Positions 6,665-28,077 are shown, counted from the stretch's first letter. The stretch: 39,296 nt of DNA from a virus (IMGVR_UViG_2541047784_000014), one strand, 5' to 3'. Notes: generated by a model not told the origin, from the letters alone. Translations and numbers: made by a program.

Positions 6665-6684
6665 GCCGCATAAGCGGTTTTTTT
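6665..6684 (+). terminator. Putative Rho-independent terminator
   Basis: Short hairpin CCGC-ataa-GCGG followed by seven T; preceded by a stable hairpin GGCACTGG-caaaat-CCAGTGCC (6607-6628). Confidence 0.45.
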
Positions 6685-6838
6685 ATGTGTAAAGCGCACC
6701 TATTCTATGGTGGGCTGTGTGGGGGCACCGAAAGGTGCGCCGGGTTCCTTTGTAGCCGGTAAGACCAACTCTGCACAGTTCACCACCATCTGATTGGTCT
6801 CAGCGGTGGTGATTAACCTAACTACAAAGGTGATCGCC

Positions 6839-8772: not shown

Positions 8773-8798
8773 TTAAAAACAAGGCCGCGAAAGCGGCC
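8773..8798 (-). terminator. Rho-independent terminator for the minus-strand gene 8813-9262
   Basis: Hairpin GGCCGC-gaaa-GCGGCC (8783-8798) followed on the minus strand by UUGUUUUU. Confidence 0.7.
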
Positions 8799-8799
8799 T

Positions 8800-8811
8800 G
8801 TGACATGTCAC
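8800..8811. repeat. 12-bp perfect palindrome GTGACATGTCAC (copy 1 of 3)
   Basis: Identical 12-mer also at 25802-25813 and 28066-28077, each next to a terminator-type hairpin; here it lies between the stop codon (8813-8815) and the terminator hairpin. Confidence 0.6.
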
Positions 8812-8812
8812 G

Positions 8813-9262
8813 CTACTTGCGAAATCTTTCTTTACCCTTCCAGCCAGTAGATGTTAGTTCAGGATGAATGGTTCCCAATATAAAGCCAACCATAGCGGAG
8901 CGAGGATCTTCTATTTTATCCGTTAATTCTTCGGCATAACTCACAGGCAACCAAGCAACAAGATCACCAATCCTCAGCTTTGGTCCTTTGCTGTAAGATG
9001 AATCGGCAATAACAAAAAATCCACCATCAGCTGAGCACACCTTCAGCATTGCCCTTTGTCTTCCAGAATCTAGCAAAACTGGCTGTTCCCCACTTGGACC
9101 AGGTATGATGATGGCTGGCATTGGTTTATTGGCTGAAAGGCTTGTGTCAAGATACTTACACGCATACTCAAAAGCTGAAAAGTTATCCTTAAAGATAAGA
9201 GGTTGAATTTTATTGCTAACCTCCTTACCACCGATTAATCTGTTGATCATCTTCTTGAACAT
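8813..9262 (-). CDS. Hypothetical protein (about 149 aa)
   Basis: ORF with in-frame ATG codons at 9262 and 9250 (the track start is a GTG at 9271); moderately AT-rich; followed by palindrome and terminator. Confidence 0.55.
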   Translation of the reverse strand: MFKKMINRLIGGKEVSNKIQPLIFKDNFSAFEYACKYLDTSLSANKPMPAIIIPGPSGEQPVLLDSGRQRAMLKVCSADGGFFVIADSSYSKGPKLRIGDLVAWLPVSYAEELTDKIEDPRSAMVGFILGTIHPELTSTGWKGKERFRK

Positions 9263-9274
9263 AAAGGTCACCTA

Positions 9275-9715
9275 ATGATTAAGCCGATGCACGCTATTAC
9301 AGCTACCGTTTTGTTTATCCTACCAATTTTTTCGTTTGCAAACGACATATGTTTTAAGAATTTAATAAATGAGGATATGTGTGCACATGCAAACAAAATT
9401 GCATCAGAAGCAGGAAAGTCACTTCCCATAAAATTGAATGATAATATGTCTATTGTTTCAATAAATGCAATACTAAACAAACTTTTAGTTGTAGCGCATC
9501 TTAATTACAACAACAGCTATTTATCAAAAGTTTATAACGGTGATGTAACCTTAGAAAATAAATTAAAGAGTGTAATGCGAAATTATTCAAAATCGAGCAT
9601 TTGCTCCAACAGGCAAATGAAAGCATTTATTCACCTTGGCGGAGAGATTGAATATAGGTATGTATTTAGTGATGGCAATATATTTGATACATACGCCATC
9701 ACTAATTGTGAATAG
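9275..9715 (+). CDS. Secreted (signal-peptide) Cys-containing protein, AT-rich accessory gene
   Basis: Predicted signal peptide (probable cleavage after FSFA); 4 Cys in the mature part; very AT-rich; on the strand opposite to the flanking late genes, its stop codon abutting the convergent stop of the 1129-aa gene (TAG/CTA at 9713-9718). Confidence 0.6.
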   Translation: MIKPMHAITATVLFILPIFSFANDICFKNLINEDMCAHANKIASEAGKSLPIKLNDNMSIVSINAILNKLLVVAHLNYNNSYLSKVYNGDVTLENKLKSVMRNYSKSSICSNRQMKAFIHLGGEIEYRYVFSDGNIFDTYAITNCE

Positions 9716-12700
9716 CTATTTCATCTGCTCTTCAACTTTATTTAGTAACGGTGATATCGCCCACAGGTTCTGAAAAGGTAGCATTTTACGGACCGCGTGG
9801 GTTTGCTGGCTGTCAAATTCTCCGTTAAGTACACCATTCGCAACCGTCGCGGCATCACCGCCAAGATCAAAGGTAGGACCAAGTAAAGCACCAATAGCAT
9901 TACGACTCTGAAACCTTGATACCGGAGGCGCACCAAACATCGCGCCAAGACCAAACCTACCGCCGCTTATGTTCTCAACGGTATTCAGCGGCTCAGAGAG
10001 CCAGCCAAGCATTCCGCCCCGGTCGATCCCCTCTTTCACAAGGTTATTCCAGCTGTAGTCGATATCGCGACCGCTTAACTTCTGTTTCATCATATAGACC
10101 ATTGAGCCAAGCGCAATCGTGCCAAGCGCACCAAGATAGAATGCAGCATCGCCCTGCTGGATACCAGATACTAGCACCCTGTTATGCTGTGCGAAGATAA
10201 ACGTTTTGAACTGCGTGATCATCTTCCAGCCTTCTTTACTAAAAAACAGCGGTGTATCACCTACGCCAGGCGTTACAATCACTGAGTCTACATCTTTCAG
10301 CACTGCAGACTGGAAAATCTCTCTAGCGAAACGGTCATCCCACAGATGACTATGCCCGGTTAACAGCCCGTCCATATCCTCTCCGTGCTTCCCGAATTGC
10401 TCCCCGATTCGGCGCAGAACATCTTCATTGATGCCGACCTGTGCCATCTTCCGCATTTCACTTTTGGAGAGCGTGCCACCAGCAGAAACTTGGCGAGCCG
10501 CGTCAAGTATCCTCGACTGCACTATCATCCCGGACCATGATTTAAGTGCGCTGTTCCACTGATTCATCAGCGTCCAGTTACCGAATTTCTGCGTCATCCA
10601 GTTCAGACCTCGCTCAGCGGCGCTTCTCCGGCTATAGGGGTCAGTAAGATCCGCTATAGCCTTTGTACGCGTAGACAGGACATAATCAAGCCCAACGGCC
10701 ATTTCTCGCAAATCCCTGGTTGCAATTTTCACTGAGTCCATATTTTTAAGCATGCTTACCATTGGTCCGAGAGATTTTCTCAGGCCATGCTGCATCATCG
10801 GTCGCATCAGATCAGTTGCAGCGGAGACAGTCATTCCACCAAGCAAACGGAGGAAGTTAATATTCCTAGCAACTCGCCCGGCACGAACAAAGAAACTGCG
10901 TGGATCTTGAGGTGCACCGTAAGTACCAAGCAGTCGATCACGCATAGCCGTAATATCCCTAATATCAGCCTCCCGTTGCTTCTCAAGAACTGCACGTCGT
11001 TTAGGTGTTTTAGCCTCTTTTATTAGCCGGGTATATTCCTCACTAACCTGACGGATTTGCTCCCCCATATCTTTACGGCCAAACTGCGCAGTCAGCTCAA
11101 TTTCTGGTGCCACCTGCCGGAGATAACTTTCCATGATGTAGTTAACATCTGATTCAAGAAAATCTTCTATACGCTCATCAGGAATAAGCAGCGTTCTGCT
11201 TTTAGTGAAACCAGCCCGACCAACGAGTCTCTCTGGGATAATATCGGCTGGTACAAGCCCGGAAGGTGCGCCTATTATTTTATTCACGATCTCGTCAGCA
11301 GCGTCCTCTGCTTCCTCTCGGGATAGAGGCTCCATCTGCTTCAGTGCTCGTTCGCGGCTTGCATTCAGCCTTGTGGTTGAATTTGCCCGTTTTTGCAGTC
11401 GGCGAAGCTCAGAACGATATTTCCGTGGATTATCCAGCAACTCCATATGGCGCTGATAGACAGGAAGCTCACTCTTTGCCTGCGCTATATCATCAAGGCG
11501 TGTTTTAAGGTCAGAGCTTTCTTTCATCATTCTTGCCTGAAGTTTTTCTGATGAAGTCTCGGCCAACTCTTTTTCTATTCTTGTAAGACGCGCCTGTGTG
11601 TCAGTCTCCTGAGATATAAGCTTATTTCGTTTATCCAGTTCTTCCATGAGTAGAATTTTTTTACCAGACCATTTCTCCGCTTCAGCGATTTCACTAGCGA
11701 GAGCATCAGCGCGCGGTGCCGATTCCTCTGCAGTTTTTAGCAATGAATTTATCCTTTCAATTCGCTGACCTGCTTTGTCAGCACCTTTGGCACTAATCCC
11801 TTGTATCCAGTTGGCAATTCGCCCTCTGAATTCAGTGCGGTCGGAAAGTATCTTATCGAACTTATAAATGCGGGGAAGATAACTTTTCGCCGTCACGACA
11901 TCGATATCCTCAGGAAGGATCCCCAGTTCCTGCATACGGGCTTTTGTGGTCTCGAAAATGGGGCGGATTCTGGCGGCTGCTTGTGAAACCTCAGGAATAT
12001 CACTCTGATCACCACGGCGCATAGCCATGCCAACAGCTTCATTGAACTCAATAAAGTTCATCCTCTTCACGCCGCGGGCGCTAACAGATTTGCTGTACTG
12101 CTGGTAAGCATCACGAGTGGCTTCCATCTGCTTATAAAGCATGGCGTCGTATTGCTTAATCTTAGTCTCGACTGCCGTAAACGTAGCCAACCCCTCATCA
12201 TTTTTGGCGAAGAAATAGTTATTTTCGGCAAGCTGCTGGTTAATCTGACGGGAGACAAGAGATGGTGATTGAGCCAAGCGGCCAGCAGGAGTGACACTCA
12301 ACGTTTTGTTAGCAAGTCCAAGTCCAGCGAGCTGTTCCTGATCGAGTGTGGTATTGAAAACCTGAGCTGCACCAATGCTTTGAGGAGAATCCATACCTCG
12401 CAAATGATTACCTACTGAGTTAACCACTGCCTCGCGCGCGCTAGGTCCAGCAAGTAGCTGTGCACCAGCACCAAGGATCCCACCAACGAGAGCATCAACA
12501 ACAACGTTCGATACGCTCTCCATCGGTGAGCGAGCTTCCTGAGTGGCCTGTAATGCGGCTTCTGATACTCCCCCACCAGCAGCATTCGCCAGGGCAAAAC
12601 GCCCTGCCGTCTCAGCAATACTTCCTCCACGCGCTACCGCCCCTACAGGGATAAACATTGCAGCCACATTAACCGGGTCTATCATTCCCATTGCTAAGCT

Positions 12701-13105
12701 TGAAATAGTACCAGCACCACCCATTTCAGATAGATATTCTCTATCTGTTCTTTGCTTATCGATTCGATGTTTAATTGCCATTGTTTCTTCATGCGAACCG
12801 GAGTTGATAAACGAATCTGCAAAATCTTCATAGCCTTTAATATCTGCTGCATCGTTATCAAATGGGTTATATCCTTCAACCCTGTCAAACTGACTGAAAG
12901 GAGCACTGGCAATAAAGCTACCCAGCGTGTTATCTATACGAAATGCTGCTTGTCTAGACCTTTGAACGCGTTGATCACTGGTAAATGGGTTCACAGCAGA
13001 AAGCAAAGAAGGTGTTTCCATATAGAAATTACTGTCATCAGGTGCTGCTATTTGCTGAATATCCTCGCCAAGCAACTCTTTAGGATCCTGTTCATATATC
13101 GGCAT
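9716..13105 (-). CDS. Internal virion (ejection/core) protein, T7 gp16-like position
   Basis: 1129 aa; Gly/Ala-rich hydrophobic stretches and long coiled-coil region; last large gene before the tail-fibre position in T7 order. Confidence 0.75.
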   Translation of the reverse strand: MPIYEQDPKELLGEDIQQIAAPDDSNFYMETPSLLSAVNPFTSDQRVQRSRQAAFRIDNTLGSFIASAPFSQFDRVEGYNPFDNDAADIKGYEDFADSFINSGSHEETMAIKHRIDKQRTDREYLSEMGGAGTISSLAMGMIDPVNVAAMFIPVGAVARGGSIAETAGRFALANAAGGGVSEAALQATQEARSPMESVSNVVVDALVGGILGAGAQLLAGPSAREAVVNSVGNHLRGMDSPQSIGAAQVFNTTLDQEQLAGLGLANKTLSVTPAGRLAQSPSLVSRQINQQLAENNYFFAKNDEGLATFTAVETKIKQYDAMLYKQMEATRDAYQQYSKSVSARGVKRMNFIEFNEAVGMAMRRGDQSDIPEVSQAAARIRPIFETTKARMQELGILPEDIDVVTAKSYLPRIYKFDKILSDRTEFRGRIANWIQGISAKGADKAGQRIERINSLLKTAEESAPRADALASEIAEAEKWSGKKILLMEELDKRNKLISQETDTQARLTRIEKELAETSSEKLQARMMKESSDLKTRLDDIAQAKSELPVYQRHMELLDNPRKYRSELRRLQKRANSTTRLNASRERALKQMEPLSREEAEDAADEIVNKIIGAPSGLVPADIIPERLVGRAGFTKSRTLLIPDERIEDFLESDVNYIMESYLRQVAPEIELTAQFGRKDMGEQIRQVSEEYTRLIKEAKTPKRRAVLEKQREADIRDITAMRDRLLGTYGAPQDPRSFFVRAGRVARNINFLRLLGGMTVSAATDLMRPMMQHGLRKSLGPMVSMLKNMDSVKIATRDLREMAVGLDYVLSTRTKAIADLTDPYSRRSAAERGLNWMTQKFGNWTLMNQWNSALKSWSGMIVQSRILDAARQVSAGGTLSKSEMRKMAQVGINEDVLRRIGEQFGKHGEDMDGLLTGHSHLWDDRFAREIFQSAVLKDVDSVIVTPGVGDTPLFFSKEGWKMITQFKTFIFAQHNRVLVSGIQQGDAAFYLGALGTIALGSMVYMMKQKLSGRDIDYSWNNLVKEGIDRGGMLGWLSEPLNTVENISGGRFGLGAMFGAPPVSRFQSRNAIGALLGPTFDLGGDAATVANGVLNGEFDSQQTHAVRKMLPFQNLWAISPLLNKVEEQMK

Positions 13106-15852
13106 TATTTGCCCCCTGCGTATATATTGCTCGGAAGGTAATTGGCTGAACCATAACCGAATGGTTTGGTCAGATCTGGAGGAGTATATCCATCTTTATT
13201 GCTGAACTGCGGCAGCGGATTGCCTTCTCTCCGCACTCTAGCCTCATCAACACGTTGTTGCTGGAACTGAATGGTTTGCCTGTACATTGGAGATGTCAGC
13301 TGATCCGGCTTGAAACGAACAGGGAGACCATTTTCTCCAATATAATTTCTCGGTTCTATCGCTCCGTTTGCGTCAGGCTGTAAAACCATAACAGCATAAC
13401 TCCTATCCCTTGCCGTAAGGCCATCAGAAACAAGTATTAAGTCCGTATCACTGCGAGGACCGCCAAAGGATTTTGATTTAAGCTCGCGTTTTTCCTGCTC
13501 CCACTGCCCCTGTATCCAGTTACCAGCACCATTATTTACTCCGTACAATGCCTCAGGTGCATACTTCATAACCTCTGCTTTGCCATTAACCGTAGAAACT
13601 CCCCAGGTGGTTCTGATCATGGCATTGGTCATTTTCTCAGCCTGTTCTGCATCGCCACCTGTCTGTACAAAGTTAGCATCGTAAATTGTCTGGTAATCTC
13701 GCTGATAGGCCGCATTTGATTTTCCTGGATCGGTAATATCCGGAGACCACGAACCAAAGGAAGTCAGACTGCTGGCGTTATTTTGTGCAGCAGTTGCCCT
13801 CGCCGCGACATATTTTTTGTCTCGCATGGCAGTGGAAAGCATCTGTTTCATTCGGTCATCCTGTTGGAACACCTGGCTGTAAGCCATATCAACAGCCTTA
13901 TCCTCCGGCACGCCAGCGCGGGAATAATCGTAAACCTTGCCGTAAAATGCCATCGTACTTTTATCAAGTGTTGCCGCTGCCGCCGGATTATTATCGAATA
14001 ACTGACCGTAGAATTTTGCCATCGGGACAACCAGCGCAGGATCTCTTGATGTTGCTCCACTGTTAAGCATTGTTTTAACCTGAGTTGGTATCATGCCGCT
14101 TTTAGTTGTGACGGTGACCAGTGTATTGATGCTCTGCGGATCAGATATGGAAAACGAAGGCGCGATATCCTGCGCGAAATAACGGTCTACCGCTGCCTGA
14201 TTGTTTTTGTCGTTCGGGTCCAGCGGGAAGTTATTTTGCATTGAAGACACGAACCTGTTTCTTCCCTGCTGAATCTCCCACTCCCTATCCATCTCTTTAA
14301 ATTTGGCCTGCATTTTCTCCCAGCGTTGCTGGTTAGCTGCAAATCCAGGAGCGTTTGGATCCTGTGGACGTAAACGTTCAAGAATGTCTTGTCGTCCTTC
14401 TGGAGTGAGGTCTTTAGCGGCACCAATGACACCTCCATATTGTATCTGCGCCTGCATATCCTTCCACTTCATAGCGCCAATGCGCGGACCATTGGCCCGG
14501 ATAAAATCGTCCTCAGAAGGTAACTTCTCAGGTTTCAATCCTTCATCAAGGGCTGAATATGCATCTTTAACTACGGTGCTAAGCTGGTCCGCATACTGCT
14601 GGCGGTACTGATTTCTCAGCTCATTAGCCTGCCTCAATGCCTGTATTTGCATTTGAGGGCTCATAGCATCAAATGCCGCATTGCCCGTATAACGCTTAGG
14701 TGAATCAAGGTTAGTTAGACCAAGGGCTGCCGAGATACCAGTTTCAAGCTGTTCGGTGCTATAAGGCATACTGCCATTTTCGTGTTTAATAATCCCAGCA
14801 CATAAAGCAGCTAGTGTCTTTGGGTTAGAGATATCAAGCTGATCATTCTCCCCAACACCAAGCTCACCACACAATGCCCTAATATAAGCATCAGTATTAT
14901 TACCATCACTAGCCGGAGCATAGCGATTAACAATCTCGCTAACGGTGTCATAGCCTTGACGCTGGTAAGACAACATATTTTTACCCAACGCGCGGATTCC
15001 ATGCTCAGGGGTAGCAAACGTTGCAAAACGTCCATCGCTACCGATCTGACCTTCCCACGGGTTAGATTTGCTCGCTTCAATATTACCAGGGTTATTATTA
15101 CGTAAACCACGAGCATCCAATGAATTACCATGTGATATTGCACGACTCACACCATCAAGATCCCCTGGCTCTCCATTAACCTGAAGAAACTCGTTGTATT
15201 TTTGAGCGATATTTCCTATCCATGCTTGCTGCCCCATTTGTTCCTTGAGCTGAGTTTTCTGCTGAACACGCCACTCATCAGGAAGCCCATGCGCATCAGC
15301 GTATTGATCAATAGATTCAAATCGCTGCTTGGCTAAATCGACAAATGCTTGGTTATCGCTATATAGCCCCGCAGACTGAGTGACAGCCAATGCATTTCCT
15401 GACAAATACGTTTGATCTTGGAATTGCTGAAACTGCCCAACTTCATATCGACGTGCCTGATTGTAATAAGACTGCATAGACTGCTGGAGTTGAAAGGATA
15501 ATTTATTCCTTTCCTCACTTTCAGGAATTGAGCCTAATAATGCCTGAGCCCTTTCCTGCATATTTTTCATAACAGCGTCACTCTGACCAAGAGCGTTTTT
15601 ACCCTGTTTAGAAATCAGCCCACTTTCAGGGTTGTTAATCTGGTCATCTGCAAATTGGTTAAATTGCAGTAACGCCTCCTGGGCCATAGCAACATTCGCT
15701 TTCTGCCTGGCTTCACCATATGCCACCGCATACTGATCTGCGACATTCGCCAGCACCTGACCTGCTTGAGGAACATCGAAGATCTGAAAACCACCGGTTT
15801 GCACACCACGACTTTGCACCTGGCGTCCGGATGTAGTAGGAACAACAGGCAT
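13105..15852 (-). CDS. Internal virion protein with putative peptidoglycan-hydrolase motif (T7 gp15/gp16-like)
   Basis: 915 aa; central motif GLRNNNPGNIEASKSNPWEGQIG...YAPASDGNN resembles virion-associated cell-wall hydrolase domains; start overlaps the upstream stop. Confidence 0.75.
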   Translation of the reverse strand: MPVVPTTSGRQVQSRGVQTGGFQIFDVPQAGQVLANVADQYAVAYGEARQKANVAMAQEALLQFNQFADDQINNPESGLISKQGKNALGQSDAVMKNMQERAQALLGSIPESEERNKLSFQLQQSMQSYYNQARRYEVGQFQQFQDQTYLSGNALAVTQSAGLYSDNQAFVDLAKQRFESIDQYADAHGLPDEWRVQQKTQLKEQMGQQAWIGNIAQKYNEFLQVNGEPGDLDGVSRAISHGNSLDARGLRNNNPGNIEASKSNPWEGQIGSDGRFATFATPEHGIRALGKNMLSYQRQGYDTVSEIVNRYAPASDGNNTDAYIRALCGELGVGENDQLDISNPKTLAALCAGIIKHENGSMPYSTEQLETGISAALGLTNLDSPKRYTGNAAFDAMSPQMQIQALRQANELRNQYRQQYADQLSTVVKDAYSALDEGLKPEKLPSEDDFIRANGPRIGAMKWKDMQAQIQYGGVIGAAKDLTPEGRQDILERLRPQDPNAPGFAANQQRWEKMQAKFKEMDREWEIQQGRNRFVSSMQNNFPLDPNDKNNQAAVDRYFAQDIAPSFSISDPQSINTLVTVTTKSGMIPTQVKTMLNSGATSRDPALVVPMAKFYGQLFDNNPAAAATLDKSTMAFYGKVYDYSRAGVPEDKAVDMAYSQVFQQDDRMKQMLSTAMRDKKYVAARATAAQNNASSLTSFGSWSPDITDPGKSNAAYQRDYQTIYDANFVQTGGDAEQAEKMTNAMIRTTWGVSTVNGKAEVMKYAPEALYGVNNGAGNWIQGQWEQEKRELKSKSFGGPRSDTDLILVSDGLTARDRSYAVMVLQPDANGAIEPRNYIGENGLPVRFKPDQLTSPMYRQTIQFQQQRVDEARVRREGNPLPQFSNKDGYTPPDLTKPFGYGSANYLPSNIYAGGK

Positions 15853-16427
15853 CAGTAACCTCCTATTTTGAATCGGGAGTCAGAATTCATAAAACCTGAG
15901 TTAGATAACATTGGCGTCCCACCACTAGATGTACTTCCTTTAGAGAACGGACTCCACGTCCCACCAAACATCTGGTACGCACCGTATGCCTTCAGAGGCG
16001 CAGTGAGCAATGTTGTTGCTGCTCCCACATTCCCCTGTTTACGGGCTGAACTGGCTTCTGCTTTATAGTTGGCAGCCTGAACCTGATAACCGTAAGCCTC
16101 GCGTTGCGCGTTATTCACCGTCGTCAGCGAATCAAGAGCGCCAAACTGGGCAGTGTCGCCAAATATATCCAGCGCGTTACCTGTAGATAAATCAGCGCCG
16201 GTAGCCCCCATTGTCGCCGCCTGTGTACCAAGCCGCTGTCGGGTCTCTCTGCGCCGTTGCTCAGCTTCAGCGTTACCTCTGTTTATTGCATCATTTGCCT
16301 GAGCTGTGGCTATATCTGCGTTCGCTTCTGCAACCTTCGAGGCATACTTTCCCTGTTGGTACTGGGTGTATGCCTGAATGCCACTCATGGCGAGCATTGC
16401 GCCACCAGCAATAACCGGATCGCACAT
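15852..16427 (-). CDS. Internal virion protein B-like (T7 gp14-like)
   Basis: 191 aa; N-terminus MCDPVIAGGAMLAMSGIQAYTQ parallels the T7 gp14 N-terminus (MC...A..I..SG.QA); correct position in T7 order. Confidence 0.65.
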   Translation of the reverse strand: MCDPVIAGGAMLAMSGIQAYTQYQQGKYASKVAEANADIATAQANDAINRGNAEAEQRRRETRQRLGTQAATMGATGADLSTGNALDIFGDTAQFGALDSLTTVNNAQREAYGYQVQAANYKAEASSARKQGNVGAATTLLTAPLKAYGAYQMFGGTWSPFSKGSTSSGGTPMLSNSGFMNSDSRFKIGGY

Positions 16428-20290: not shown

Positions 20291-20340
20291 ATACACTCCT
20301 GCAATAAAGGGGCCGAAGCCCCTTGTCTGATTCGCGAGGC

Positions 20341-20685
20341 TTACACGCCCAGTTCTTTACGCTTATCTGCGATCTTCTCGCGGAGCGTTTCGGCTTTGGC
20401 GTTATGGTGTGGCTTCTCGTTAAAGAGCAATTCGTACTCTTCACGGAGCTTATCCAGTTCACCATCATCTGACACATCGTTGATGATTTTGGTGCTGGTT
20501 GCTGCCATAGACACCTTTCCTGCTACCTTTGCTTTTGCCTGTCTGGCTGCATCGTTAACAGGTTCCAGTGCGCTACCAGGCTCACCTTCGTATTCGATTT
20601 CTGCCCCCTCCGGCCACAGTGTGTTATGGATATGAGAGAGGCGCAGAACGCGGTATCTTGGTTTCTCACCTGACATCGAAATCAC
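20341..20685 (-). CDS. Hypothetical head/neck protein
   Basis: 114-aa ORF in the capsid-to-tail interval, followed by an intercistronic hairpin (20307-20324). Confidence 0.55.
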   Translation of the reverse strand: MISMSGEKPRYRVLRLSHIHNTLWPEGAEIEYEGEPGSALEPVNDAARQAKAKVAGKVSMAATSTKIINDVSDDGELDKLREEYELLFNEKPHHNAKAETLREKIADKRKELGV

Positions 20686-20686
20686 C

Positions 20687-21124
20687 TTAACCAGTTACTT
20701 TTGAGCGGATCGGGTACGGCGTATTGGCATCAACATCAAGATTGATACCAGCAGTGAATTCGCCAGCCGTTAGTGGGCCAGTTGCGACGGAGTAGTTAAC
20801 ACGCAGATATCGCTGAACACCGGCAGGAACCTTTGCAGAAACAACTCGTTTACCTGCTGTCAGGGCGGTCTTTGCCAGTGCGCCACTATCATAAATAGTG
20901 GTCCATGAGCTGTTATTCTCACTCGTCTGCAACTGGATGTTTACAGTTGCATCACCGCTTGCCGCGGCGGCTGTGTTAACCAGCGCCCAAAACTCAAGCG
21001 GGTAACCCACGCCGATATCACGACATTTTCCGTCAATTGGACCGAGATCGATTACGTCAGTAGAAGCCGCGGTATTCGTAACCGCCTGAGCTTCGGAGAA
21101 CATCAACAGTTTGTCGGTGATCAT
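20687..21124 (-). CDS. Hypothetical capsid-associated protein (possible decoration protein)
   Basis: 145-aa Thr/Ala/Gly-rich ORF immediately after the capsid gene, GGAG before the ATG; decoration role is a positional guess. Confidence 0.55.
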   Translation of the reverse strand: MITDKLLMFSEAQAVTNTAASTDVIDLGPIDGKCRDIGVGYPLEFWALVNTAAAASGDATVNIQLQTSENNSSWTTIYDSGALAKTALTAGKRVVSAKVPAGVQRYLRVNYSVATGPLTAGEFTAGINLDVDANTPYPIRSKVTG

Positions 21125-21139
21125 CTTCTTTCTCCATTA

Positions 21140-21159
21140 GTGGGCCTGTTGCGGCCCAC
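21140..21159 (-). other. Intercistronic stem-loop downstream of the major capsid gene
   Basis: Hairpin GTGGGCC-tgttgc-GGCCCAC with no U-tract; sits between the capsid stop (21176) and the next start (21124). Confidence 0.45.
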
Positions 21160-21175
21160 AGGTTAATAACAGGCG

Positions 21176-22168
21176 TTACACCACGCGGGCTTCTGTTTCC
21201 AGAAGCGCATCAGTTTCACGAATTGGTACACCACGGAATGAAGTCCACCACTCGCCTTCTGTCTCTTTTACGCTGATCGCCAGAGATGTTTTCTCCAGAG
21301 ATTGCAGATCAAGAGCCTGGCCTACAGTGCGGTTCATGTAGAACACTGGGCGCCCCATGCCACGGTTTGGAATGCGATGCAGTGCTTTAACCATCAACTT
21401 CGCAATATTTGCGGCAGAGGAAGGTTCTGAAAGATTGCTGACATCGATGTTTGCAATGCGAACAACATAACGCCAGTCACGCAGAGCAAGTCCGTTGTCC
21501 CATTTGTAATGGGTGCGATAGCCTTCGTACTTGCCGCCATTAGCATCTTCCAGTGTCACCTGGCCTTTATCTTCCATCTGGATGCCAGCCTTCTGCCCTT
21601 TCGGGAAGATGCCATGCACGGTGTTTTCGCCCCACACCACTAACCAGATTGAGGTGTTATCTGTACCCGTGCCACCAGCATCAATGATGTTCTGAGCATT
21701 ACCCGCAGACAGGCTGGAATAGCGGGAGGACAGTCCCATAAACTGCTGAGGGTTAACGCTGGAATCACCATAAAACAGCGTCTGCGCCATCTGCTGATTC
21801 ATCGCTTCAATAAATGCGCGGTCTTCAGACAGGCGGAATTCAGCGGTATTGCCGTTCAGATCAGCCAGTGACTTATCGACTTCAGCATAGGTTTCCAGCA
21901 TGCCAACGGAATCGGTTACCTGCACTGTGGTTGATTTGCTTGGCTGTACGCCATAGTTCAGCAAACGCCAGGTAGCTGAAGGTAAACCAGAACGAATGGT
22001 GGTTCGGTGTCCGGTAGGAAGGTTCCCTTCGACAAAAGGCATATCCTGAAGGATCGGGTTAGTTTGACCGAGAAGCTCGATAATCTTATCGACTTTCCCG
22101 TTTGGATCGACGCGCTTACCCCAGTCAGCCAGCGTTAGCGCAGTTAAGCCTTTAACAGCCATTGTCAT
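21176..22168 (-). CDS. Major capsid protein
   Basis: 330 aa (T7 gp10A is about 345 aa); follows the scaffold gene; RBS GAGAGG. Confidence 0.8.
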   Translation of the reverse strand: MTMAVKGLTALTLADWGKRVDPNGKVDKIIELLGQTNPILQDMPFVEGNLPTGHRTTIRSGLPSATWRLLNYGVQPSKSTTVQVTDSVGMLETYAEVDKSLADLNGNTAEFRLSEDRAFIEAMNQQMAQTLFYGDSSVNPQQFMGLSSRYSSLSAGNAQNIIDAGGTGTDNTSIWLVVWGENTVHGIFPKGQKAGIQMEDKGQVTLEDANGGKYEGYRTHYKWDNGLALRDWRYVVRIANIDVSNLSEPSSAANIAKLMVKALHRIPNRGMGRPVFYMNRTVGQALDLQSLEKTSLAISVKETEGEWWTSFRGVPIRETDALLETEARVV

Positions 22169-22176
22169 TTCCTCTC

Positions 22177-22878
22177 TTATTTGCCATAGAGCACTTCGGC
22201 CGCACTACGCTGGCCTTCATTACCACCGGTGACCATGCCATCTTCAGACATCGCCTTTCCGATTTTCACGAACGTTTTGACCAGATCAGGGTGATTACCC
22301 AGCCCGGTGGTGTTCAGATATTCTTTGAGTTCAGGTGTCCCGAACTGGTCAAGCGCACGCTGTGCGGCGCTAAGGTTAGAAATCAACTTGTCGCCACCGA
22401 TTTCTTTGTCAGCTTTTACATCCGCAGCCCACTGCTCGGTTGTTTTCTGCCAGGCTTCTGCCTGGCGCTGCTGAACACCTGCCAGAATCTTCGGATAAGC
22501 ATCAACCAGCTTTTGCGCTTGCTCGTTGGTCAGGTTAAGTTCTCGCGCCACCGGCTCGAATTCCTTCAACGCTTCTGTATCCAGCTCTACGCCTTCGGCA
22601 GCCTGAAACTCGTACTTCTCAGGCGCACCCTCTGGTTTATCGCCGTCCTTTTTTTCATCCTGCTTATCGTTTTCAGGCTTTTTGTCATCAGCAGGTTTAT
22701 CGCCATCAGCAACAGGTTGTGGCTTATCACCTTCCTGTTGTGATGGATCACCAACTGGAGCAGGGTTATCACCTGCAGGCGCTGACGGTTCTGACGCAGC
22801 CGGAGCTGCTCCACCATCGACTGGTTGCTCATTGCAAAGACGGCGATACAGCAAACGCTCAAATAAATTCATGATCAC
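22177..22878 (-). CDS. Scaffolding protein
   Basis: Acidic, Ala/Pro/Lys/Asp-rich low-complexity N-terminal half with a helical C-terminal half; located between portal and capsid genes. Confidence 0.7.
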   Translation of the reverse strand: MIMNLFERLLYRRLCNEQPVDGGAAPAASEPSAPAGDNPAPVGDPSQQEGDKPQPVADGDKPADDKKPENDKQDEKKDGDKPEGAPEKYEFQAAEGVELDTEALKEFEPVARELNLTNEQAQKLVDAYPKILAGVQQRQAEAWQKTTEQWAADVKADKEIGGDKLISNLSAAQRALDQFGTPELKEYLNTTGLGNHPDLVKTFVKIGKAMSEDGMVTGGNEGQRSAAEVLYGK

Positions 22879-23171
22879 TCCTGTTCACTGGCCTCTTTGG
22901 CCATCTTCAAATACTGTTCAGGGCAATGCGCCATAACGCGCTGAAACAGTTCCAGCGCCAGATTGCGTTGCCCCTCATTAAATGCCATTGCCATAGCATC
23001 CATCGGAGAGATAGCGGAAAACACACGGCCTTTCTCCAGCACCGACCAGACAACGCGACGCCCCTGTTCACTGCTCATGACAAAGCGAATGTCATCAATT
23101 TCACGCTGTGCCATGTCACGTTGCTTACGGGCGTTTTCTTCTTTCAGTTGATCGTCTTCGTAATCTGTCAT
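22875..23171 (-). CDS. Hypothetical protein between portal and scaffold
   Basis: 98-aa ORF, start overlapping the portal stop (translational coupling). Confidence 0.55.
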   Translation of the reverse strand: MTDYEDDQLKEENARKQRDMAQREIDDIRFVMSSEQGRRVVWSVLEKGRVFSAISPMDAMAMAFNEGQRNLALELFQRVMAHCPEQYLKMAKEASEQE

Positions 23172-24847
23172 TGTGATTGCCCACCCTGACCACTAACTGC
23201 ATTCGCCATAGCTGACAAAACACTCGGATCCGAAGTTTTAGCTTCGCTTAGCGTCTTGGCACCCTGTGCCGCCGCCATCCCCATCGCCATCATTTGTTGC
23301 TGCTGTTGTTGCTGTGCCCGTTGCTGGCGAGCCTGCTCAACCTGTTCCTGCGGAACAATGACGGTTGGAGACACTCCGGACATATCAGCGAATGCATCGA
23401 TCGCCTGATCAACGTTGAGTTTGTCGAGAGCTTCTGGTTTCGCTTGCGCAAGTTGACCAATGAAGTTGACCGTAGACGCCAGACTGGACAGGCCGATAGA
23501 CTTCTGCGCCTGAGCCATGACGGAAATGTATTCGACCTTCAGGGGCATACCTTCCATCGCGTCAGGCGGTGGCGGCAGCATGTTTTTACGCACCATCATC
23601 GAGAAAGCGCGGTCAATGAGAGGATTAAGACATTCGTCGTTCAGACGCTCCAGAACCGGCCCCAACATCAGAAGTTTTTCTTCTTTCATTTCGATCACCG
23701 CTTCAACAGGCATCGAGCGGGTATTGATGTTCTGCAACATCATGAACAGATCGACAAAGTAGGCGCTGTTAATGATTTGACGAGTGTCCTGAATGTCTGC
23801 CACCAAATCTGCTGTACTGGGGTTAACCAGATAAGCAGGTCTGAAACCATCCTGACCAGTAATCTGATCGATATACGTGATGTCGCCAGGAAGAAGGGAG
23901 GCACGCTGATTCTTGAGGGAAGTCGGAGCAACCATCGGCGGATTGGTGGCTTTATCAATCAACTGCGACTTGCGCTTCTGGAGAAGCTGCAATGCCTTAA
24001 CAGGTCCAAGCGCCAGCATACCCGGGCATGATGATCCATAAACATCTTCGCCGTTAACTTCCCAGCGCGGAGCCATAATTGGAAACTCATCGAATCCGGA
24101 CTCACGCAACAACTTGTCGTTATCGCCACCAACCTCGTAATAAACCGATTTGAATGGCTTGTTCTTGCTATCCAGCTTCGATGTATCGCGGTCAATGTTC
24201 GGGTAAACCGAATGCATCACTTCGATCCACTTCTCGTAGGTGCCGCTTTCCCACATGCTTTTTACGGATTCGCTGACGTTATTTAGCCCGAACTCCTGAA
24301 CAAGCTGACGAACAGTCATAGAGAACTTGCGAAAACAGGTGTCAACACTGCCACGAGGTGAGTTAGCCAGGTAGTAACTGCCTATCGGGAATGGCATTGT
24401 GCGAATGATGTCCTCGTCATCCTCCAGCACTGCCATTGCACCAGTGCTGTATGTGCCGAGGCTTCCGTATAACTGCGGCAGCGACTGATAGAGATTCGAC
24501 TTATTGAACATATCGTTCATGCGGTTCTGCACCGCCTCAAGCCACAACTTAACAGGGCCATAATCCATCATTTCAGGATCTGGCGTAGCCAGGCGAAACC
24601 ACGGACGCGCGGGGCTTGTGATGCCTGACATCATGCCGCTGGCGAGAGTGCGCGCCGCCATAGTCCCGGTCGAATCAATAATGCGTGTATTGCGTCGATC
24701 GTTACGGTTGACCTCAGAAGTCAGAAAGCGGGAACCACGCGGGTTGATGTAATCACTCAACTCGCGCCAGTGCGGCTCGAACGACTGACGCTCGCTTTCA
24801 AGTTGTGCGAACTGTTTGTTCAATCGCTCTTTAGTTGTTTCCGCCAT
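23168..24847 (-). CDS. Portal (head-to-tail connector) protein, T7 gp8-like
   Basis: 559 aa; Gln/Ala/Met-rich C-terminal tail (QQQQQQQMMAMGMAAAQG) resembles the T7 gp8 C-terminus; RBS GGAGTCATTGAA. Confidence 0.85.
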   Translation of the reverse strand: MAETTKERLNKQFAQLESERQSFEPHWRELSDYINPRGSRFLTSEVNRNDRRNTRIIDSTGTMAARTLASGMMSGITSPARPWFRLATPDPEMMDYGPVKLWLEAVQNRMNDMFNKSNLYQSLPQLYGSLGTYSTGAMAVLEDDEDIIRTMPFPIGSYYLANSPRGSVDTCFRKFSMTVRQLVQEFGLNNVSESVKSMWESGTYEKWIEVMHSVYPNIDRDTSKLDSKNKPFKSVYYEVGGDNDKLLRESGFDEFPIMAPRWEVNGEDVYGSSCPGMLALGPVKALQLLQKRKSQLIDKATNPPMVAPTSLKNQRASLLPGDITYIDQITGQDGFRPAYLVNPSTADLVADIQDTRQIINSAYFVDLFMMLQNINTRSMPVEAVIEMKEEKLLMLGPVLERLNDECLNPLIDRAFSMMVRKNMLPPPPDAMEGMPLKVEYISVMAQAQKSIGLSSLASTVNFIGQLAQAKPEALDKLNVDQAIDAFADMSGVSPTVIVPQEQVEQARQQRAQQQQQQQMMAMGMAAAQGAKTLSEAKTSDPSVLSAMANAVSGQGGQSQ

Positions 24848-24861
24848 TTCAATGACTCCGG

Positions 24862-25068
24862 TTACTGACCAAGTAGCGTTTTACCGCTGGTATTAGCGGT
24901 TGATGTGTCGCCCTGAGAACCGGTAAGCAGCGTAGAACTACGACCAGCAGCAGCGCGACGGCGACGAGTTTCTTCGTCGCGGGCATCAACAACGGCGGCA
25001 TCCTGCTCCTGTGGTGCTGCCTGAACTTCTGGTGTTGCAGGCACTGATGGTGAGCTACCCATGCACAT
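24862..25068 (-). CDS. Hypothetical small protein (68 aa) upstream of portal
   Basis: ATG preceded by GGAGTCATTGAT, nearly identical to the portal initiation region; an overlapping alternative frame (24849-25088) is less likely. Confidence 0.4.
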   Translation of the reverse strand: MCMGSSPSVPATPEVQAAPQEQDAAVVDARDEETRRRRAAAGRSSTLLTGSQGDTSTANTSGKTLLGQ

Positions 25069-25157
25069 ATCAATGACTCCGTACGCAATTAAATTATTAC
25101 CAATTTAACCACATATGATTTATTTATCGTAGGTAGTTGACATTTAACGCACAAATT

Positions 25158-25174
25158 ATTACCTTTCAGGTAAC
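25158..25174. promoter_or_regulatory. Dyad operator-like site ATTACCTTTCAGGTAAC
   Basis: Near-identical to the 6176-6192 site; preceded by a TTGACA hexamer (25137-25142) and a shared AACCACATA element (25107-25115). Confidence 0.45.
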
Positions 25175-25494
25175 CAAAGAGTTCATTCCGGTTACTAACC
25201 TGACTGGCTTGTCGTTAAATTGAACAGGTGGAGTGAGCTTTTATTTTGAGCAGTACGGCGTATGGCACATGCGCCGATAGCGGTCTGGATACGTTTAAGG
25301 GGCACCCTCCCTTGCTCGGGCAACGAACCAGGTAGCCGGAATGTGCAAGTCGAGCGGTTTTATTCCGCGCACGGGGATTCACCATCCTGGCGATTCGGTG
25401 TGACGCCTCGGAAGAGACGAGGGTACAACGATGAGAGCATTTATGAAGCCGCGACAAAGTGTGGCGTCTTAACAGGCTAAGTGCTCTCAGCGTT

Positions 25495-25571
25495 GTGGCA
25501 TTAGCTCAGTTGGACAGAGCAACCGCCTTCTAAGCGGTTGGTCGCAGGTTCGAATCCTGCATGCCACGCCA
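25495..25571 (+). tRNA. tRNA-Arg, anticodon UCU
   Basis: Full cloverleaf: acceptor GTGGCAT/ATGCCAC, D-arm GCTC-AGTTGGACA-GAGC, anticodon stem ACCGC/GCGGT with loop CTTCTAA, T-arm GCAGG-TTCGAAT-CCTGC, discriminator G and encoded CCA; close to E. coli argU. Confidence 0.9.
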
Positions 25572-25614
25572 GAATCACGCCTAAGGACCGTGATGCCAGA
25601 AGTTCCAGGGGCTT

Positions 25615-25657
25615 GGCGGTGATGGTTTCCCTTGAAGGACTATCACCGCCCTTTTTA
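25615..25657 (+). terminator. Rho-independent terminator downstream of the tRNA
   Basis: 9-bp stem GGCGGTGAT/ATCACCGCC with a large loop, followed by CTTTTT. Confidence 0.6.
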
Positions 25658-25734
25658 CAGCAGGACGCCATTGCGATGACTTCATGCTGTAAACCCGTAC
25701 AGCCACGGAAGGCAAAACTCATTGCTTCCAGTTC

Positions 25735-25758
25735 GCCCGGTTCGCCGGGCATTTTTTT
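25735..25758 (+). terminator. Rho-independent terminator
   Basis: Hairpin GCCCGG-ttcg-CCGGGC followed by seven T. Confidence 0.75.
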
Positions 25759-25801
25759 AAGGTGTGAATCATGAAATACGAATTCGATGGATTTTGATGT
25801 C

Positions 25802-25813
25802 GTGACATGTCAC
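25802..25813. repeat. 12-bp perfect palindrome GTGACATGTCAC (copy 2 of 3)
   Basis: Identical to copies at 8800-8811 and 28066-28077; followed 4 bp later by a terminator hairpin. Confidence 0.6.
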
Positions 25814-25817
25814 AAAC

Positions 25818-25844
25818 AGCCAGCCGATGAGCTGGCTTTGTTTT
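25818..25844 (+). terminator. Rho-independent terminator
   Basis: Hairpin AGCCAGC-cgatga-GCTGGCT followed by TTTGTTTT. Confidence 0.7.
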
Positions 25845-25887
25845 ATCCTCATCAGAGGATATCAACGATATTATCCCCTCAAGCGGA

Positions 25888-27363
25888 TTAAGCATAGGGA
25901 TCGTAATCTGTGATGGCCTTGCCTTGCTGGTTCTGCTGCCCGGGAATTCGCAGACGCTTCGACACAGGGAACGCAAACGTCAGCAGTAGCGCATCGCCTT
26001 TACCAGGCGAACGCCCAAGCCGCTCCTTGATATCTTCCTTCGGTTCGATAACGATTTTACCGTCCACTCGAACTTTGTACTCTGCCGCCGACAGATCGTC
26101 CGCTGTTTCCTGGTCATCCAGCATCCCGCCCAGCCTCAGCCATGTCTTGCATGAGTTGAACATCTCCCCACGCTTGTTGAGCATCTGCTGGTCAGTAGAC
26201 GCGCCACCGAACGGAACAAGTTGCCATGTGCGCCCCCAACCGTCACCGATTGACTTCAGACCGGTACCGTAACCAAAGTCGATGAACACTGCGTCAGCCT
26301 GATACAGGTCTTCAAAGTCAGCAATACGCTTCGCCATAATCAGATCGTCGGTAGTCTTGTTGCCAGTCCACAGCACCTTACTGTGTAGCCCCTGCCGCAG
26401 GTATATCACCGCGTCATCAACGCCTGAATATGCCGGGTCAACACCGATTATCACCGGAGCATGCGCCACCTGCGCAGCGGTTACCACCCGTTTCATTGCC
26501 TCATCAGTAAGACCGGTAGGGATAAACTGCAATTCAGATGCATCAGGGAATATGCCGCGCACACGGATTTTAACGAAGTCGCTGTCTTCCCCGTAGTCAT
26601 CAACCCATTTCTGCAACTGCTGTTTGTTAGTGCCTTCCACCGTCCGGCTGTCAATCTGCGCAGTTTTCCAGCGGTGTTTATATTTGCGGAAACATTCACG
26701 GAATCGCCCGGTATTACGCGTCGGGTTTCCGAACGCCACCCAGATAATCTCAGTGTCTTCGTCCGTTAGCGCACCTTCGGCAACTTCCCACACCAGATCC
26801 GCAATGTTCGACGCTTCATCGAATACCACGATGATGCGTTTGCGCTCGTTGTGTAGTCCGGCGAATGCCTCAGTGTTGTGCTCAGACCAGGGGATTGCGT
26901 CAGCTCGCCACCGCTTGTCGTGCCCAGGATCATTGCTGTACATCGCGGTAGCGGTACAGGTAAACCAGTCTTTCGTGATAGCAAGGTTCGACCACTTGAT
27001 AATTTCCGGCCAGGTCTTCGTTCGTAGCTGGTTGTCGGTGTTGGCGGTCACCACGACCTTACAATCCTCGCAAGTGGACATGCCCCAGTTGATCAGCATT
27101 GAGATGAATGCGGATTTACCAATACCGTGACCAGAAGCGCGTGCCAGCATAAGCGGCTGATAGCGCGTCTCTGGATTCTGCAGGTGATCACGTATCTCTC
27201 GGAACGCATCAGCCTGCCACTGACGTGGGCCGGTGGCATGTGCCAGTTCAGTCCCCTCTTCCCCCCACGGGAACGCATAGAGGGCATAGCCAAGCGGATC
27301 GTGAGTGAACCCTGCAATATCCTCGATCAACTGCTCTTCAGGAGATAACGCTGTATCTGTCAC
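25888..27363 (-). CDS. Terminase large subunit
   Basis: 491 aa; Walker A-like ARASGHGIGKS in the N-terminal ATPase region; overlaps the small-subunit gene end. Confidence 0.85.
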   Translation of the reverse strand: MTDTALSPEEQLIEDIAGFTHDPLGYALYAFPWGEEGTELAHATGPRQWQADAFREIRDHLQNPETRYQPLMLARASGHGIGKSAFISMLINWGMSTCEDCKVVVTANTDNQLRTKTWPEIIKWSNLAITKDWFTCTATAMYSNDPGHDKRWRADAIPWSEHNTEAFAGLHNERKRIIVVFDEASNIADLVWEVAEGALTDEDTEIIWVAFGNPTRNTGRFRECFRKYKHRWKTAQIDSRTVEGTNKQQLQKWVDDYGEDSDFVKIRVRGIFPDASELQFIPTGLTDEAMKRVVTAAQVAHAPVIIGVDPAYSGVDDAVIYLRQGLHSKVLWTGNKTTDDLIMAKRIADFEDLYQADAVFIDFGYGTGLKSIGDGWGRTWQLVPFGGASTDQQMLNKRGEMFNSCKTWLRLGGMLDDQETADDLSAAEYKVRVDGKIVIEPKEDIKERLGRSPGKGDALLLTFAFPVSKRLRIPGQQNQQGKAITDYDPYA

Positions 27364-27956
27364 TGATTACCATCCTGACGTTCTTTGAGTCGCTTCCTGG
27401 CTGCCGCTATGCGATCAGCAATTGTCACATTCACATTAACATCCAGGCGTTCTTTGAACGCGTTGACGTCGACGTGCTTACCAATCAGTTCGAGGTTCTT
27501 CACCTTGTCAGGCCATTTAATTTTTTTGAGGATTGTCTCTATCGAATCCTCGTTCATGTTCATGATGGTCGATGACAGATCAAAGCCACTAAGCGTAGTG
27601 CGCCAGATTTTCGGCCACTCGCGGATTGGCTTAAGGCTCCCATCGTCGTTGAGGATGTCGATCACGTCCATCTGGTCGATCTCCACTAGGCGCATGAGAA
27701 CGTAATCAGCACTGACGCGCATTCGTTTGTTGCGCTCCTCCATCAACTCGGCAATCCGTTTTTGAATGCGTTCATCGCGCATCATGACACTGGCTTTAAC
27801 TGCCGCTGTATTTGGGGAGAATCCTGCGTTAATCGCTGCCTGAGTCTGGTTTTCAGGCGTTTTGATGTATGACTGGCAATAAGCCTCCTGCATTGCTGTT
27901 AGTGGCTTAAATTGCGTTGATTTGCGTTTATAGGTTTTAGGTTCAGCAGGCATCAT
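27360..27956 (-). CDS. Terminase small subunit
   Basis: Start set at the ATG pair (MMPAEPK...); helix-turn-helix-like N-terminus; the longer track ORF (to 28052) would run through a terminator hairpin and operator motifs and is rejected. Confidence 0.75.
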   Translation of the reverse strand: MMPAEPKTYKRKSTQFKPLTAMQEAYCQSYIKTPENQTQAAINAGFSPNTAAVKASVMMRDERIQKRIAELMEERNKRMRVSADYVLMRLVEIDQMDVIDILNDDGSLKPIREWPKIWRTTLSGFDLSSTIMNMNEDSIETILKKIKWPDKVKNLELIGKHVDVNAFKERLDVNVNVTIADRIAAARKRLKERQDGNQ

Positions 27957-27972
27957 AACCACCGTGGTAATA

Positions 27973-27989
27973 GTTACCGTTGTGGTAAT
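27973..27989. promoter_or_regulatory. Dyad operator-like site GTTACCGTTGTGGTAAT upstream of the terminase genes
   Basis: Same TTACC-N5-GGTAA family; 17 bp upstream of the terminase small-subunit start; flanked by GGTAATAGTTACC-type repeats (27966-27995). Confidence 0.45.
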
Positions 27990-27997
27990 AGTACCAT

Positions 27998-28025
27998 GCA
28001 AAATAAAGCCGCCATAGTTGGCGGC
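27998..28025 (-). terminator. Rho-independent terminator between the early (Nin-like) genes and the terminase genes
   Basis: Hairpin GCCGCCA-tagt-TGGCGGC (28008-28025) followed on the minus strand by UUUAUUUUG. Confidence 0.65.
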
Positions 28026-28065
28026 AGTATTCAAAACCATCAAATTCATCATGCATAATCTACTC

Positions 28066-28077
28066 GTGACATGTCAC
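28066..28077. repeat. 12-bp perfect palindrome GTGACATGTCAC (copy 3 of 3)
   Basis: Overlaps the stop codon of the 28074-28415 gene; a terminator hairpin lies about 40 bp downstream on the minus strand. Confidence 0.6.

Follow-up and report, generated by a model that had tools for sequence, protein, structure and literature searches.

A 12-bp palindrome, GTGACATGTCAC, occurs in three exact copies in the viral genome IMGVR_UViG_2541047784_000014 (39,296 bp, referred to here in its entirety as the window). Comparison of phage sequences indicates that the constant partner of this palindrome is a gene, which encodes a 112-residue protein of family PHROG 536, and not a terminator. We place the probability at about 0.6 that the palindrome is the cognate double-stranded DNA site of this phage-encoded protein, whose binding to it is predicted; any particular downstream mechanism receives roughly half of that probability. 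The conservation of the palindrome, its definition as a motif and its co-occurrence with the gene are established by the comparisons described below, and from these we infer the binding and its effect.

The window represents an epsilon15/phiV10-like temperate podophage of E. coli (genus Uetakevirus) and is complete or near-complete. It shares 97-98% identity across most of its length with phiv142-3, PAS61, TL-2011b and ZX5, and ~77-82% identity, in the aligning regions only, with epsilon15 and Enterobacter phage Tyrion. A sequence search of the window confirmed the three copies listed in the first-pass annotation (Table 1). A given 12-mer is expected 0.002 times per 39 kb (~0.3 copies per 5 Mb), and by our own calculation the probability that any palindromic 12-mer occurs thrice is ~1e-5. 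The earlier claim that three identical 12-mers are unlikely by chance therefore stands for palindromic 12-mers but not for 12-mers at large: some 12-mer occurs thrice in 6 of 50 shuffled sequences, and hence it is the palindromy and the placement that carry the weight. The pattern GTGAC-NN-GTCAC is found 3 times in the window, compared with an expectation of 0.034.

The spacing and arrangement of the half-sites were examined in 16 independent genomes or loci, comprising 456,560 bp. GTGAC-N2-GTCAC is present 36 times (~0.4 expected), while each of the other spacings from N0 to N6 is found 0-1 times and the everted or direct arrangements 0-3 times. Single half-sites are not enriched (835 vs. 892 expected). 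The flanking bases are Y/R in 70 out of 72 cases, which gives the full motif Y-GTGAC-NN-GTCAC-R with a free centre; the central dinucleotide differs by lineage, namely: AT, GC, AC, TG, AG and CT. Approximately 24 of 30 sites fall at gene boundaries, coding sequence making up most of the genomes in question. The 124 kb of lambda, P22 and P2, taken as a control, contain no site and no clear homologue of the protein (best tblastn E-value 0.05). Invariant half-sites, a variable centre and rigid spacing are, taken together, the sequence signature of a dimeric DNA-binding protein and not of an RNA stem. A restriction/modification site (ACATGT or GTSAC), against which the first-pass annotation had proposed a check, is unlikely because the motif centre varies between lineages.

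Two known types of binding site were also considered and rejected. A CRP/FNR-type site (consensus TGTGA-N6-TCACA) does not fit, since GTGA and TCAC are 4 bp apart here and not 6. A SlmA site (GTGAGTACTCAC-type consensus) does not fit either, as the motif has invariant C5/G8 where SlmA sites have G/C, and its positions 6-7 vary. An Rfam scan of the window returned only a C4 antisense RNA, isrK and tRNA-Arg, none of them over a palindrome.

Positional conservation, proposed earlier as a check, is borne out in the relatives: the 12-mer is found without any change at the corresponding positions of phiV10, epsilon15, Tyrion, Salmonella phage SPN9TCW and Klebsiella phage BUCT711. Epsilon15, Tyrion (whose record was circularised) and SPN9TCW have three copies each. 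The phiV10 record has two, and joining its ends yields no third. BUCT711 has no copy 2, but carries two extra intragenic sites (23066 and 26462). Copy 1 is invariant in all five phages, and the ends of the genes upstream of it cannot be aligned. Copy 2 is kept after the large terminase gene (terL) in phiV10, epsilon15, Tyrion and SPN9TCW, where it is preceded by the stop codon of a p03/gp50-type gene (phiV10 and epsilon15) or by another small gene on the same strand (Tyrion and SPN9TCW). The p03/gp50 gene was rejected as the partner of site 2, given that its family (N4 gp49 / Sf6 gp66) is widespread and the window does not have the gene; because the window retains the palindrome and terminator nonetheless, site 2 is tied to the position and not to that gene. 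Copy 3 is at the stop codon of the gp49-like gene also in epsilon15, Tyrion, SPN9TCW and BUCT711.

When 70 nt on each side of the palindrome are aligned, the 12 invariant columns form an island. At sites 1 and 2 this island is surrounded by unalignable DNA save for the adjoining hairpin, and at site 3 the upstream gp49-like coding sequence aligns as well. At site 1, the homology between the window and many relatives ends no more than a few bases from the palindrome. The palindrome is thus real and non-random, since the 12-mer is invariant in genomes with an overall identity of only 77-81% whose flanks cannot be aligned.

At each of the three copies, a transcription unit ends on one side of the palindrome and its intrinsic terminator stands on the other. 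The minus-strand structural (late) genes extend from the small terminase gene (terS) near 28.0 kb to ~8.8 kb, and the late region is delimited by copies 3 and 1; the terminase genes (terL, 25888..27363, minus strand) have copy 3 on one side and copy 2 on the other. Two of the copies were said to abut stop codons, and this is the case: the TAG at site 1 ends the minus-strand gene 8813..9271, and the TGA at site 3 is at 28076-28074. The unit ending at copy 2 consists of tRNA-Arg (25495-25571, plus strand) and an 8-codon remnant open reading frame (ORF; 25771-25797), with the palindrome after both.

The suggestion that the palindrome could be a regulator site proved right in kind, in that it travels with one particular phage gene across backbones. 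Viral contigs were scanned for the exact 14-mer CGTGACATGTCACA, and many of the loci found have the palindrome after the C-terminal ...GWHETKL* of homologues of the protein encoded by 28074..28412. What lies downstream of the palindrome in these loci varies: a terminator; an intact 70-aa ORF and a terminator; a strong LexA-box promoter that drives an umuD'-like gene; or a Shine-Dalgarno sequence and a start codon. When loci of close relatives were fetched by the protein alone, 75 of 80 had the site at the stop codon. Homologues found with tblastn at 46-57% identity have the exact 12-mer 0-10 nt from the 3' end of the gene. Homologues down to ~31% identity are encoded by lambdoid, P2-like, N15, Vibrio and Erwinia/Pantoea phages, with the motif at or near the gene and usually extra copies; Aeromonas phages also encode a homologue.

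Individual lineages illustrate this association. In the lambda-like phage Chlobot, the homologue is near int/xis and the palindrome, 9 nt past its stop codon, is the only copy in 46 kb. The stop codon of N15 gp46 is within GTGACTGGTCAC, and two further copies are located after the antirepressor operon (28550) and inside repA (33237). A P2-like Yersinia phage has GTGACGCGTCAC 35 nt beyond the homologous region, roughly where the stop codon of the gene is annotated. Three sites each are found in Vibrio phage K233 and a related contig, one of the three being just upstream of terS. Four further lineages from metagenomes or genomes (L213, L217, L219 and L222) have 1-2 sites each, and among Erwinia/Pantoea prophages the site is at the stop codon in 4 of 5. 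In three lineages, a site is at or near the 3' end of the antirepressor operon, namely: site 1 of the window, N15 28550 and a tandem pair in L217.

Several observations concern the surroundings of the sites in these phages. In two lambdoid contigs with the homologue (L154 1238 and L110 1499), the exact 12-mer is right after the start codon of a Q-like antiterminator gene (ATGCGTGACATGTCACAG) or within the 3' portion of a gene resembling cII; some seemingly chance matches in coding sequence may be part of the system where a lambdoid phage has the homologue. In Klebsiella-type relatives (L087, L091, L105, L116 and L208, the last being BUCT711, at ~380-430), TTGACT-N17-TATACT begins 6 nt past the palindrome. 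This promoter overlaps a LexA box (TACTGT-N8-ACAGTA), and in L091 it drives a gene whose product, beginning with MGFPSPA.., resembles pre-cleaved UmuD'. The remnant beside copy 2 reads MKYEFDGF* (plus strand), and MHDEFDGF is found by copy 3 (28052-28029, minus strand). Both resemble the C-terminus ..YDEFDGL* of the intact 70-aa ORF (L008 1659-1871), which is located between palindrome and terminator in 28 of 80 relatives; the EFDGF remnants beside copies 2 and 3 are vestiges of past deletion or recombination there. Finally, the high-G+C viral contigs L104, L123, L133, L152 and L190 have dense, iteron-like GTGAC/GTCAC arrays around a chance copy of the 12-mer, in the coding context ..ERKR..RDMSRDVT.. 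of replication-type genes. These contigs were treated as unrelated because no homologue of the protein was detected in those loci.

PHROG 536 is labelled ‘transcriptional regulator’, with no discernible experimental basis for the label, and has ~150 representatives at 50% clustering. Searches of Pfam, NCBIfam and PDB sequences with the 112-aa protein of the window gave no match. The family has a conserved N-terminal basic helix, in which R8 and R13 are nearly invariant, followed by an extended segment and two helices, and a Cys-rich C-terminal knuckle, in which C79 and C82 are invariant, C99 is nearly so and a further Cys is at 91/93. An AlphaFold2 model of the protein has a predicted local distance difference test score (pLDDT) of 90.8, and nearly all of its best structural matches are DNA-binding ribbon-helix-helix proteins, MatP included. 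According to this model, the N-terminal part is ribbon-helix-helix-like and the C-terminal part looks like a zinc knuckle. Some family members give weak Pfam ribbon-helix-helix matches, none being significant for the window protein. The family profile is also weakly similar (E = 0.07) to the RNA polymerase-binding TraR/YbiI zinc fingers; this similarity was not relied on. Our literature searches found no paper with the 12-mer and none on a phage MatP-like or ribbon-helix-helix-zinc regulator; the ZX5 paper is confined to the repressor and antirepressor.

The three hairpins with U-tracts next to the palindromes were confirmed in place and orientation, with the palindrome first and the hairpin second in the direction of the U-tract. 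By the criterion of a G+C-rich hairpin and a U-tract, all three hairpins qualify as intrinsic terminators and the palindrome, with a 4-bp stem and no U-tract, does not; the palindrome is an element separate from the adjoining terminators. A duplicated cassette is ruled out because the three hairpin sequences are unrelated and only the 12-mer is common to them. The shorter site-1 stem of the first-pass annotation (8798-8783) is 1 nt from the palindrome. The counterpart of the site-1 hairpin is annotated as a terminator in the phiV10 and epsilon15 records, and the site-2 hairpin is so annotated in phiV10. Read on the opposite strand, the site-2 hairpin has GTTTGTG after it, which makes a weak U-tract. 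The site-3 terminator, which precedes a TTACC-N5-GGTAA operator and the small terminase gene, is kept in epsilon15, Tyrion and SPN9TCW.

The proposed coupling to terminators thus holds as a placement rule for the genus but does not define the element. In the Uetakevirus genomes examined in full, the distance between palindrome and hairpin is 0-11 nt at sites 1 and 2 and 23-40 nt at site 3; in a few related IMG/VR contigs, the spacing at site 1 is up to ~23 nt. In other phages the palindrome precedes a LexA-controlled promoter or a Shine-Dalgarno sequence and start codon, or is within a gene. The further idea of a short promoter-terminator cassette found no support: the sole promoter-like match is the -35-like GTGACA inside the palindrome, with no conserved -10 after it, and the GTGACA-18-CATGAT match at site 3 is no better than in shuffled sequence and is not kept in relatives.

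In the reading that we favour, a dimer of the PHROG 536 protein, probably ribbon-helix-helix-like and zinc-binding, would read two inverted GTGAC half-sites at a fixed 2-bp spacing. One site is kept at the protein's own gene, usually over its stop codon, with more copies elsewhere in the genome, and the gene and its site therefore move jointly between phage backbones. In Uetakevirus, the copies mark the 3' ends of three units, namely: the early-right operon, the structural late operon and a small convergent tRNA/moron unit. The bound protein could then be a boundary element, i.e. a roadblock or insulator between neighbouring or convergent units, or it could hold the sites together. A boundary or bridging role is favoured because the sites are at unit ends, delimit the late region and bracket the terminase genes.

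Several points weigh against this reading. Binding of the DNA by the protein is predicted from sequence and from a structural model, and the boundary or roadblock function is a supposition that goes beyond both. A roadblock would not obviously be expected directly before a terminator, and the intragenic sites (those of BUCT711 and the one in N15 repA) are easier to reconcile with an architectural than with a transcriptional role. Ribbon-helix-helix operators normally overlap promoters, which these sites do not. The homologues in L110, L117, L226 and L220 have no site beside the gene, and some of the loci counted (L110 and L154) had been found via the motif itself.

Other explanations account for parts of the data. 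The palindrome and hairpin might together form a transcription-control module, in which a bound protein or a pause signal alters terminator efficiency, either through lambda Q-type antitermination loaded from DNA beside the protein's own gene or through enhanced termination. Within the genus, the palindrome is always upstream of a U-tract hairpin, mostly by 0-4 nt at sites 1 and 2, and the order at site 3 (regulator gene, site, terminator, packaging/late genes) mirrors that of lambda (Q, qut/pR', tR', late genes); the GTGACA within the palindrome, with its 18-nt spacer and CATGAT at site 3, would also fit. We nevertheless regard such a module as unlikely, given that the spacing ranges over 0-40 nt with unrelated hairpin sequences, that other lineages have no terminator after the gene-side site and that the promoter-like match does not exceed shuffles. 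Moreover, the family coexists with a Q-like antiterminator in Chlobot and L154 and is also found in P2-like phages. A repressor-type operator lies between the site-3 terminator and terS, and a separate promoter before terS is therefore probable. An RNA element is less probable still. In that case, a GUGA-CAUG-UCAC hairpin, located between cistrons or in the 3' untranslated region, would act on the stability or processing of the mRNA or on translational coupling, and the Cys-rich domain of the protein might bind it. Each of the three copies is transcribed next-to-last in its unit and forms the 4-bp hairpin in minimum-free-energy folds; the stop codon is often inside the motif, and in many lineages the distance from the motif to a downstream Shine-Dalgarno sequence and start codon is 3-20 nt. 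However, the stem is invariant and never covaries while the centre of the would-be loop varies, which is the opposite of RNA structure. The hairpin is also very weak, with 4 base pairs, has no Rfam match, and the sites occur in both orientations and inside genes. Least probable of all is that the 12-mer is a recombination joint, a conserved linker at module boundaries with no protein-binding role. Homology does stop within a few bases of site 1, one flank of each site differs among relatives, the same small-ORF ends (..EFDGF/L*) are beside sites 2 and 3, and the phage has RecE/RecT-type genes. Yet a linker needs neither a perfect dyad nor a spacer that is constant at 2 bp but free in sequence, nor co-occurrence with one gene across podo-, sipho- and myovirus backbones in Vibrio and enteric hosts, and mosaic joints would be expected wherever a functional site is strongly conserved.

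Since MatP appeared among the structural matches of the protein, its site, matS, was also compared with the phage motif. MatP comprises a four-helix bundle, a ribbon-helix-helix and a C-terminal coiled coil; the phage protein has neither the bundle nor the coiled coil, with a Cys-rich knuckle instead. It further differs in being phage-encoded, with one site tied to its gene. Homology to MatP was rejected (hhalign probability 0.35%; the family profile yields no MatP match), and the likeness is therefore one of kind, i.e. of fold class and half-site, and not of family membership. matS is a 13-bp site, GTGAC[AG]N[CT]GTCAC (PMC3603311, PMC7394560). Its GTGAC half-sites are identical to those of the phage motif, whose spacer is one base shorter (2 bp vs. 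3). The copies in the window do not match the 13-bp motif, having a length of 12 bp and a 2-bp centre, and the 16 genomes or loci contain 36 N2 sites and one N3 site. Vibrio phage K233, in addition to its three 12-bp sites, has one true 13-bp matS-type site, GTGACACCGTCAC, at a gene end with a hairpin next to it (L211 19491).

This resemblance allows two further explanations. A host factor could be responsible, the palindrome being a matS-like site bound by MatP or another host protein and the phage gene a mere passenger; the site might, for example, tie phage or prophage DNA into chromosome organisation through MukBEF exclusion or division-site anchoring. We consider this improbable. In its favour are the identical half-sites, a centre (A-T) that equals the R and Y of matS minus the N, the matS-type site of K233 and the hosts of all phages seen, which belong to Enterobacterales, Vibrio or Aeromonas, groups that presumably encode MatP. 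On the other hand, the spacing is strictly 2 bp, a one-base change that rotates and shifts the half-sites relative to each other, and we know of no report of MatP binding to a 12-mer. The site follows the phage gene and not the host clade, lambda, P22 and P2 have none, and the centres CT, TG and AG violate the R..Y rule of matS. Furthermore, Bobay et al. found no true matS in ~500 prophages, where it is apparently avoided (PMC3603311). This absence fits an orthogonal spacing. Alternatively, the protein and its sites could be a phage-borne counterpart of MatP/matS, an architectural system rather than a transcription factor, bridging or marking a few chromosome points, in this phage either end of the late region and both flanks of the terminase genes, at that orthogonal spacing, which we hold to be a tentative idea with a small share of the probability. 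If true, such a counterpart could fold or position replicating phage DNA, or interfere with the host SMC (structural maintenance of chromosomes; MukBEF-type) or Ter machinery, and shared ancestry with the DNA-binding core of MatP would be possible.

Returning to the predicted pair of PHROG 536 protein and site, its resemblance to other known systems is limited. The operators of the ribbon-helix-helix regulators Arc, Mnt, CopG, omega, ParG and TraM/TraY overlap promoters, centromeres or oriT, whereas the phage motif is located within genes, in intercistronic gaps, at the 3' ends of genes and ahead of terminators. The Cys-rich C-terminal domain is likewise not a feature of those families. Lambda Q is alike only in the gene order at site 3, where the regulator gene is the last of the early-right operon; we found no relation in sequence or fold and no conserved promoter over the site, and the extra phage sites are at the ends of units, not at their starts. 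KorA and KorB of IncP plasmids are element-encoded proteins with identical 12-13-bp palindromes that are scattered over the plasmid, some of them far from promoters. The likeness lies in the scattered palindromes; the protein families differ, KorA/KorB being of helix-turn-helix/ParB type, and no linked partition genes are present here.

The protein-site pair has no Pfam family and, as we found no paper on it, appears to be undescribed, and it is common to epsilon15-like, lambdoid, P2-like, N15-like, Vibrio and Erwinia/Pantoea temperate phages. The sharp motif makes for a testable regulon of one 112-aa protein and one 14-bp site, and it accounts for a conserved feature of Uetakevirus that was earlier annotated merely as ‘terminators’. 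Should the protein act at operon ends, it would be an unusual element-encoded boundary factor; an architectural role would make it a genome organiser of a kind new to phages. The identity with the matS half-site raises the question of how ribbon-helix-helix-type proteins read GTGAC, and the further question of whether phages avoid or exploit the Ter-organising system of the host through a spacing that is shorter by one base.

Table 1. Coordinates of the palindromes, of the neighbouring terminators and of the candidate binding-protein gene in the window.
Feature	Position	Strand	Remarks
Palindrome copy 1	8800..8811		1 nt past the TAG of the last late-operon gene; abuts the terminator of that operon
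Palindrome copy 2	25802..25813		End of a small plus-strand unit converging on the large terminase gene
Palindrome copy 3	28066..28077		Holds the TGA stop of the gp49-like gene, last of the early-right operon
One-mismatch copy GTGCCATGTCAC	23108..23119		Within the coding region of a structural gene
Candidate binding-protein gene, 112 aa	28074..28412	-	Homologue of epsilon15 gp49, phiV10 p55 and N15 gp46; PHROG 536
Late-operon terminator	8774..8799	-	AGGCCGC-TTTC-GCGGCCT (8799-8782), then TGTTTTTA; 0 nt from copy 1
Site-2 terminator	25818..25846	+	AGCCAGC-CGATGA-GCTGGCT (25818-25837), then TTGTTTTAT; 4 nt from copy 2
Site-3 terminator	28000..28025	-	GCCGCCA-ACTA-TGGCGGC (28025-28008), then TTTATTTT; 40 nt from copy 3

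The one-mismatch copy is probably a chance occurrence outside the system. The window also contains a second, different palindrome, TTACC-N5-GGTAA, in ten copies (0.01 expected) at 6177, 6557, 7598, 25159, 27974, 30894, 30956, 33311, 34023 and 34085. These are at the starts of units, namely: the tailspike gene, the antirepressor region, the head operon, terS and the immunity region, which suggests that one repressor directly controls every unit through this operator. The ‘repressor’ sites of epsilon15 were considered as instances of the 12-mer and rejected, since they are TTACC-N5-GGTAA.

Rfam matches to isrK (6608-6684, plus strand) and to a C4 antisense RNA of the P1/P7 anti-immunity type (6703-6790, plus strand) are at the head of the plus-strand antirepressor region, after a TTACC-N5-GGTAA operator; this operon ends ~85 nt from copy 1. 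The tRNA-Arg (anticodon TCT) is between the terminase and portal regions, and because it overlaps ORF 25501..25752 (PHROG 4647; phiV10 p04) on the other strand, that ORF may be no real gene. The small terminase ORF (27360-28052, minus strand, 230 aa) spans the site-3 terminator hairpin and the operator, while its Pfam domain begins at residue 51. Translation probably begins near 27955 (ATGATGCC), and the gene seems to be misannotated in a similar way in phiV10. Lastly, the minus-strand replication gene 31790..32629 contains CCAAAAACGGGA five times exactly and once with a single mismatch at 32203-32367; the first four copies have a 24-bp period, and the repeats are probably origin iterons.

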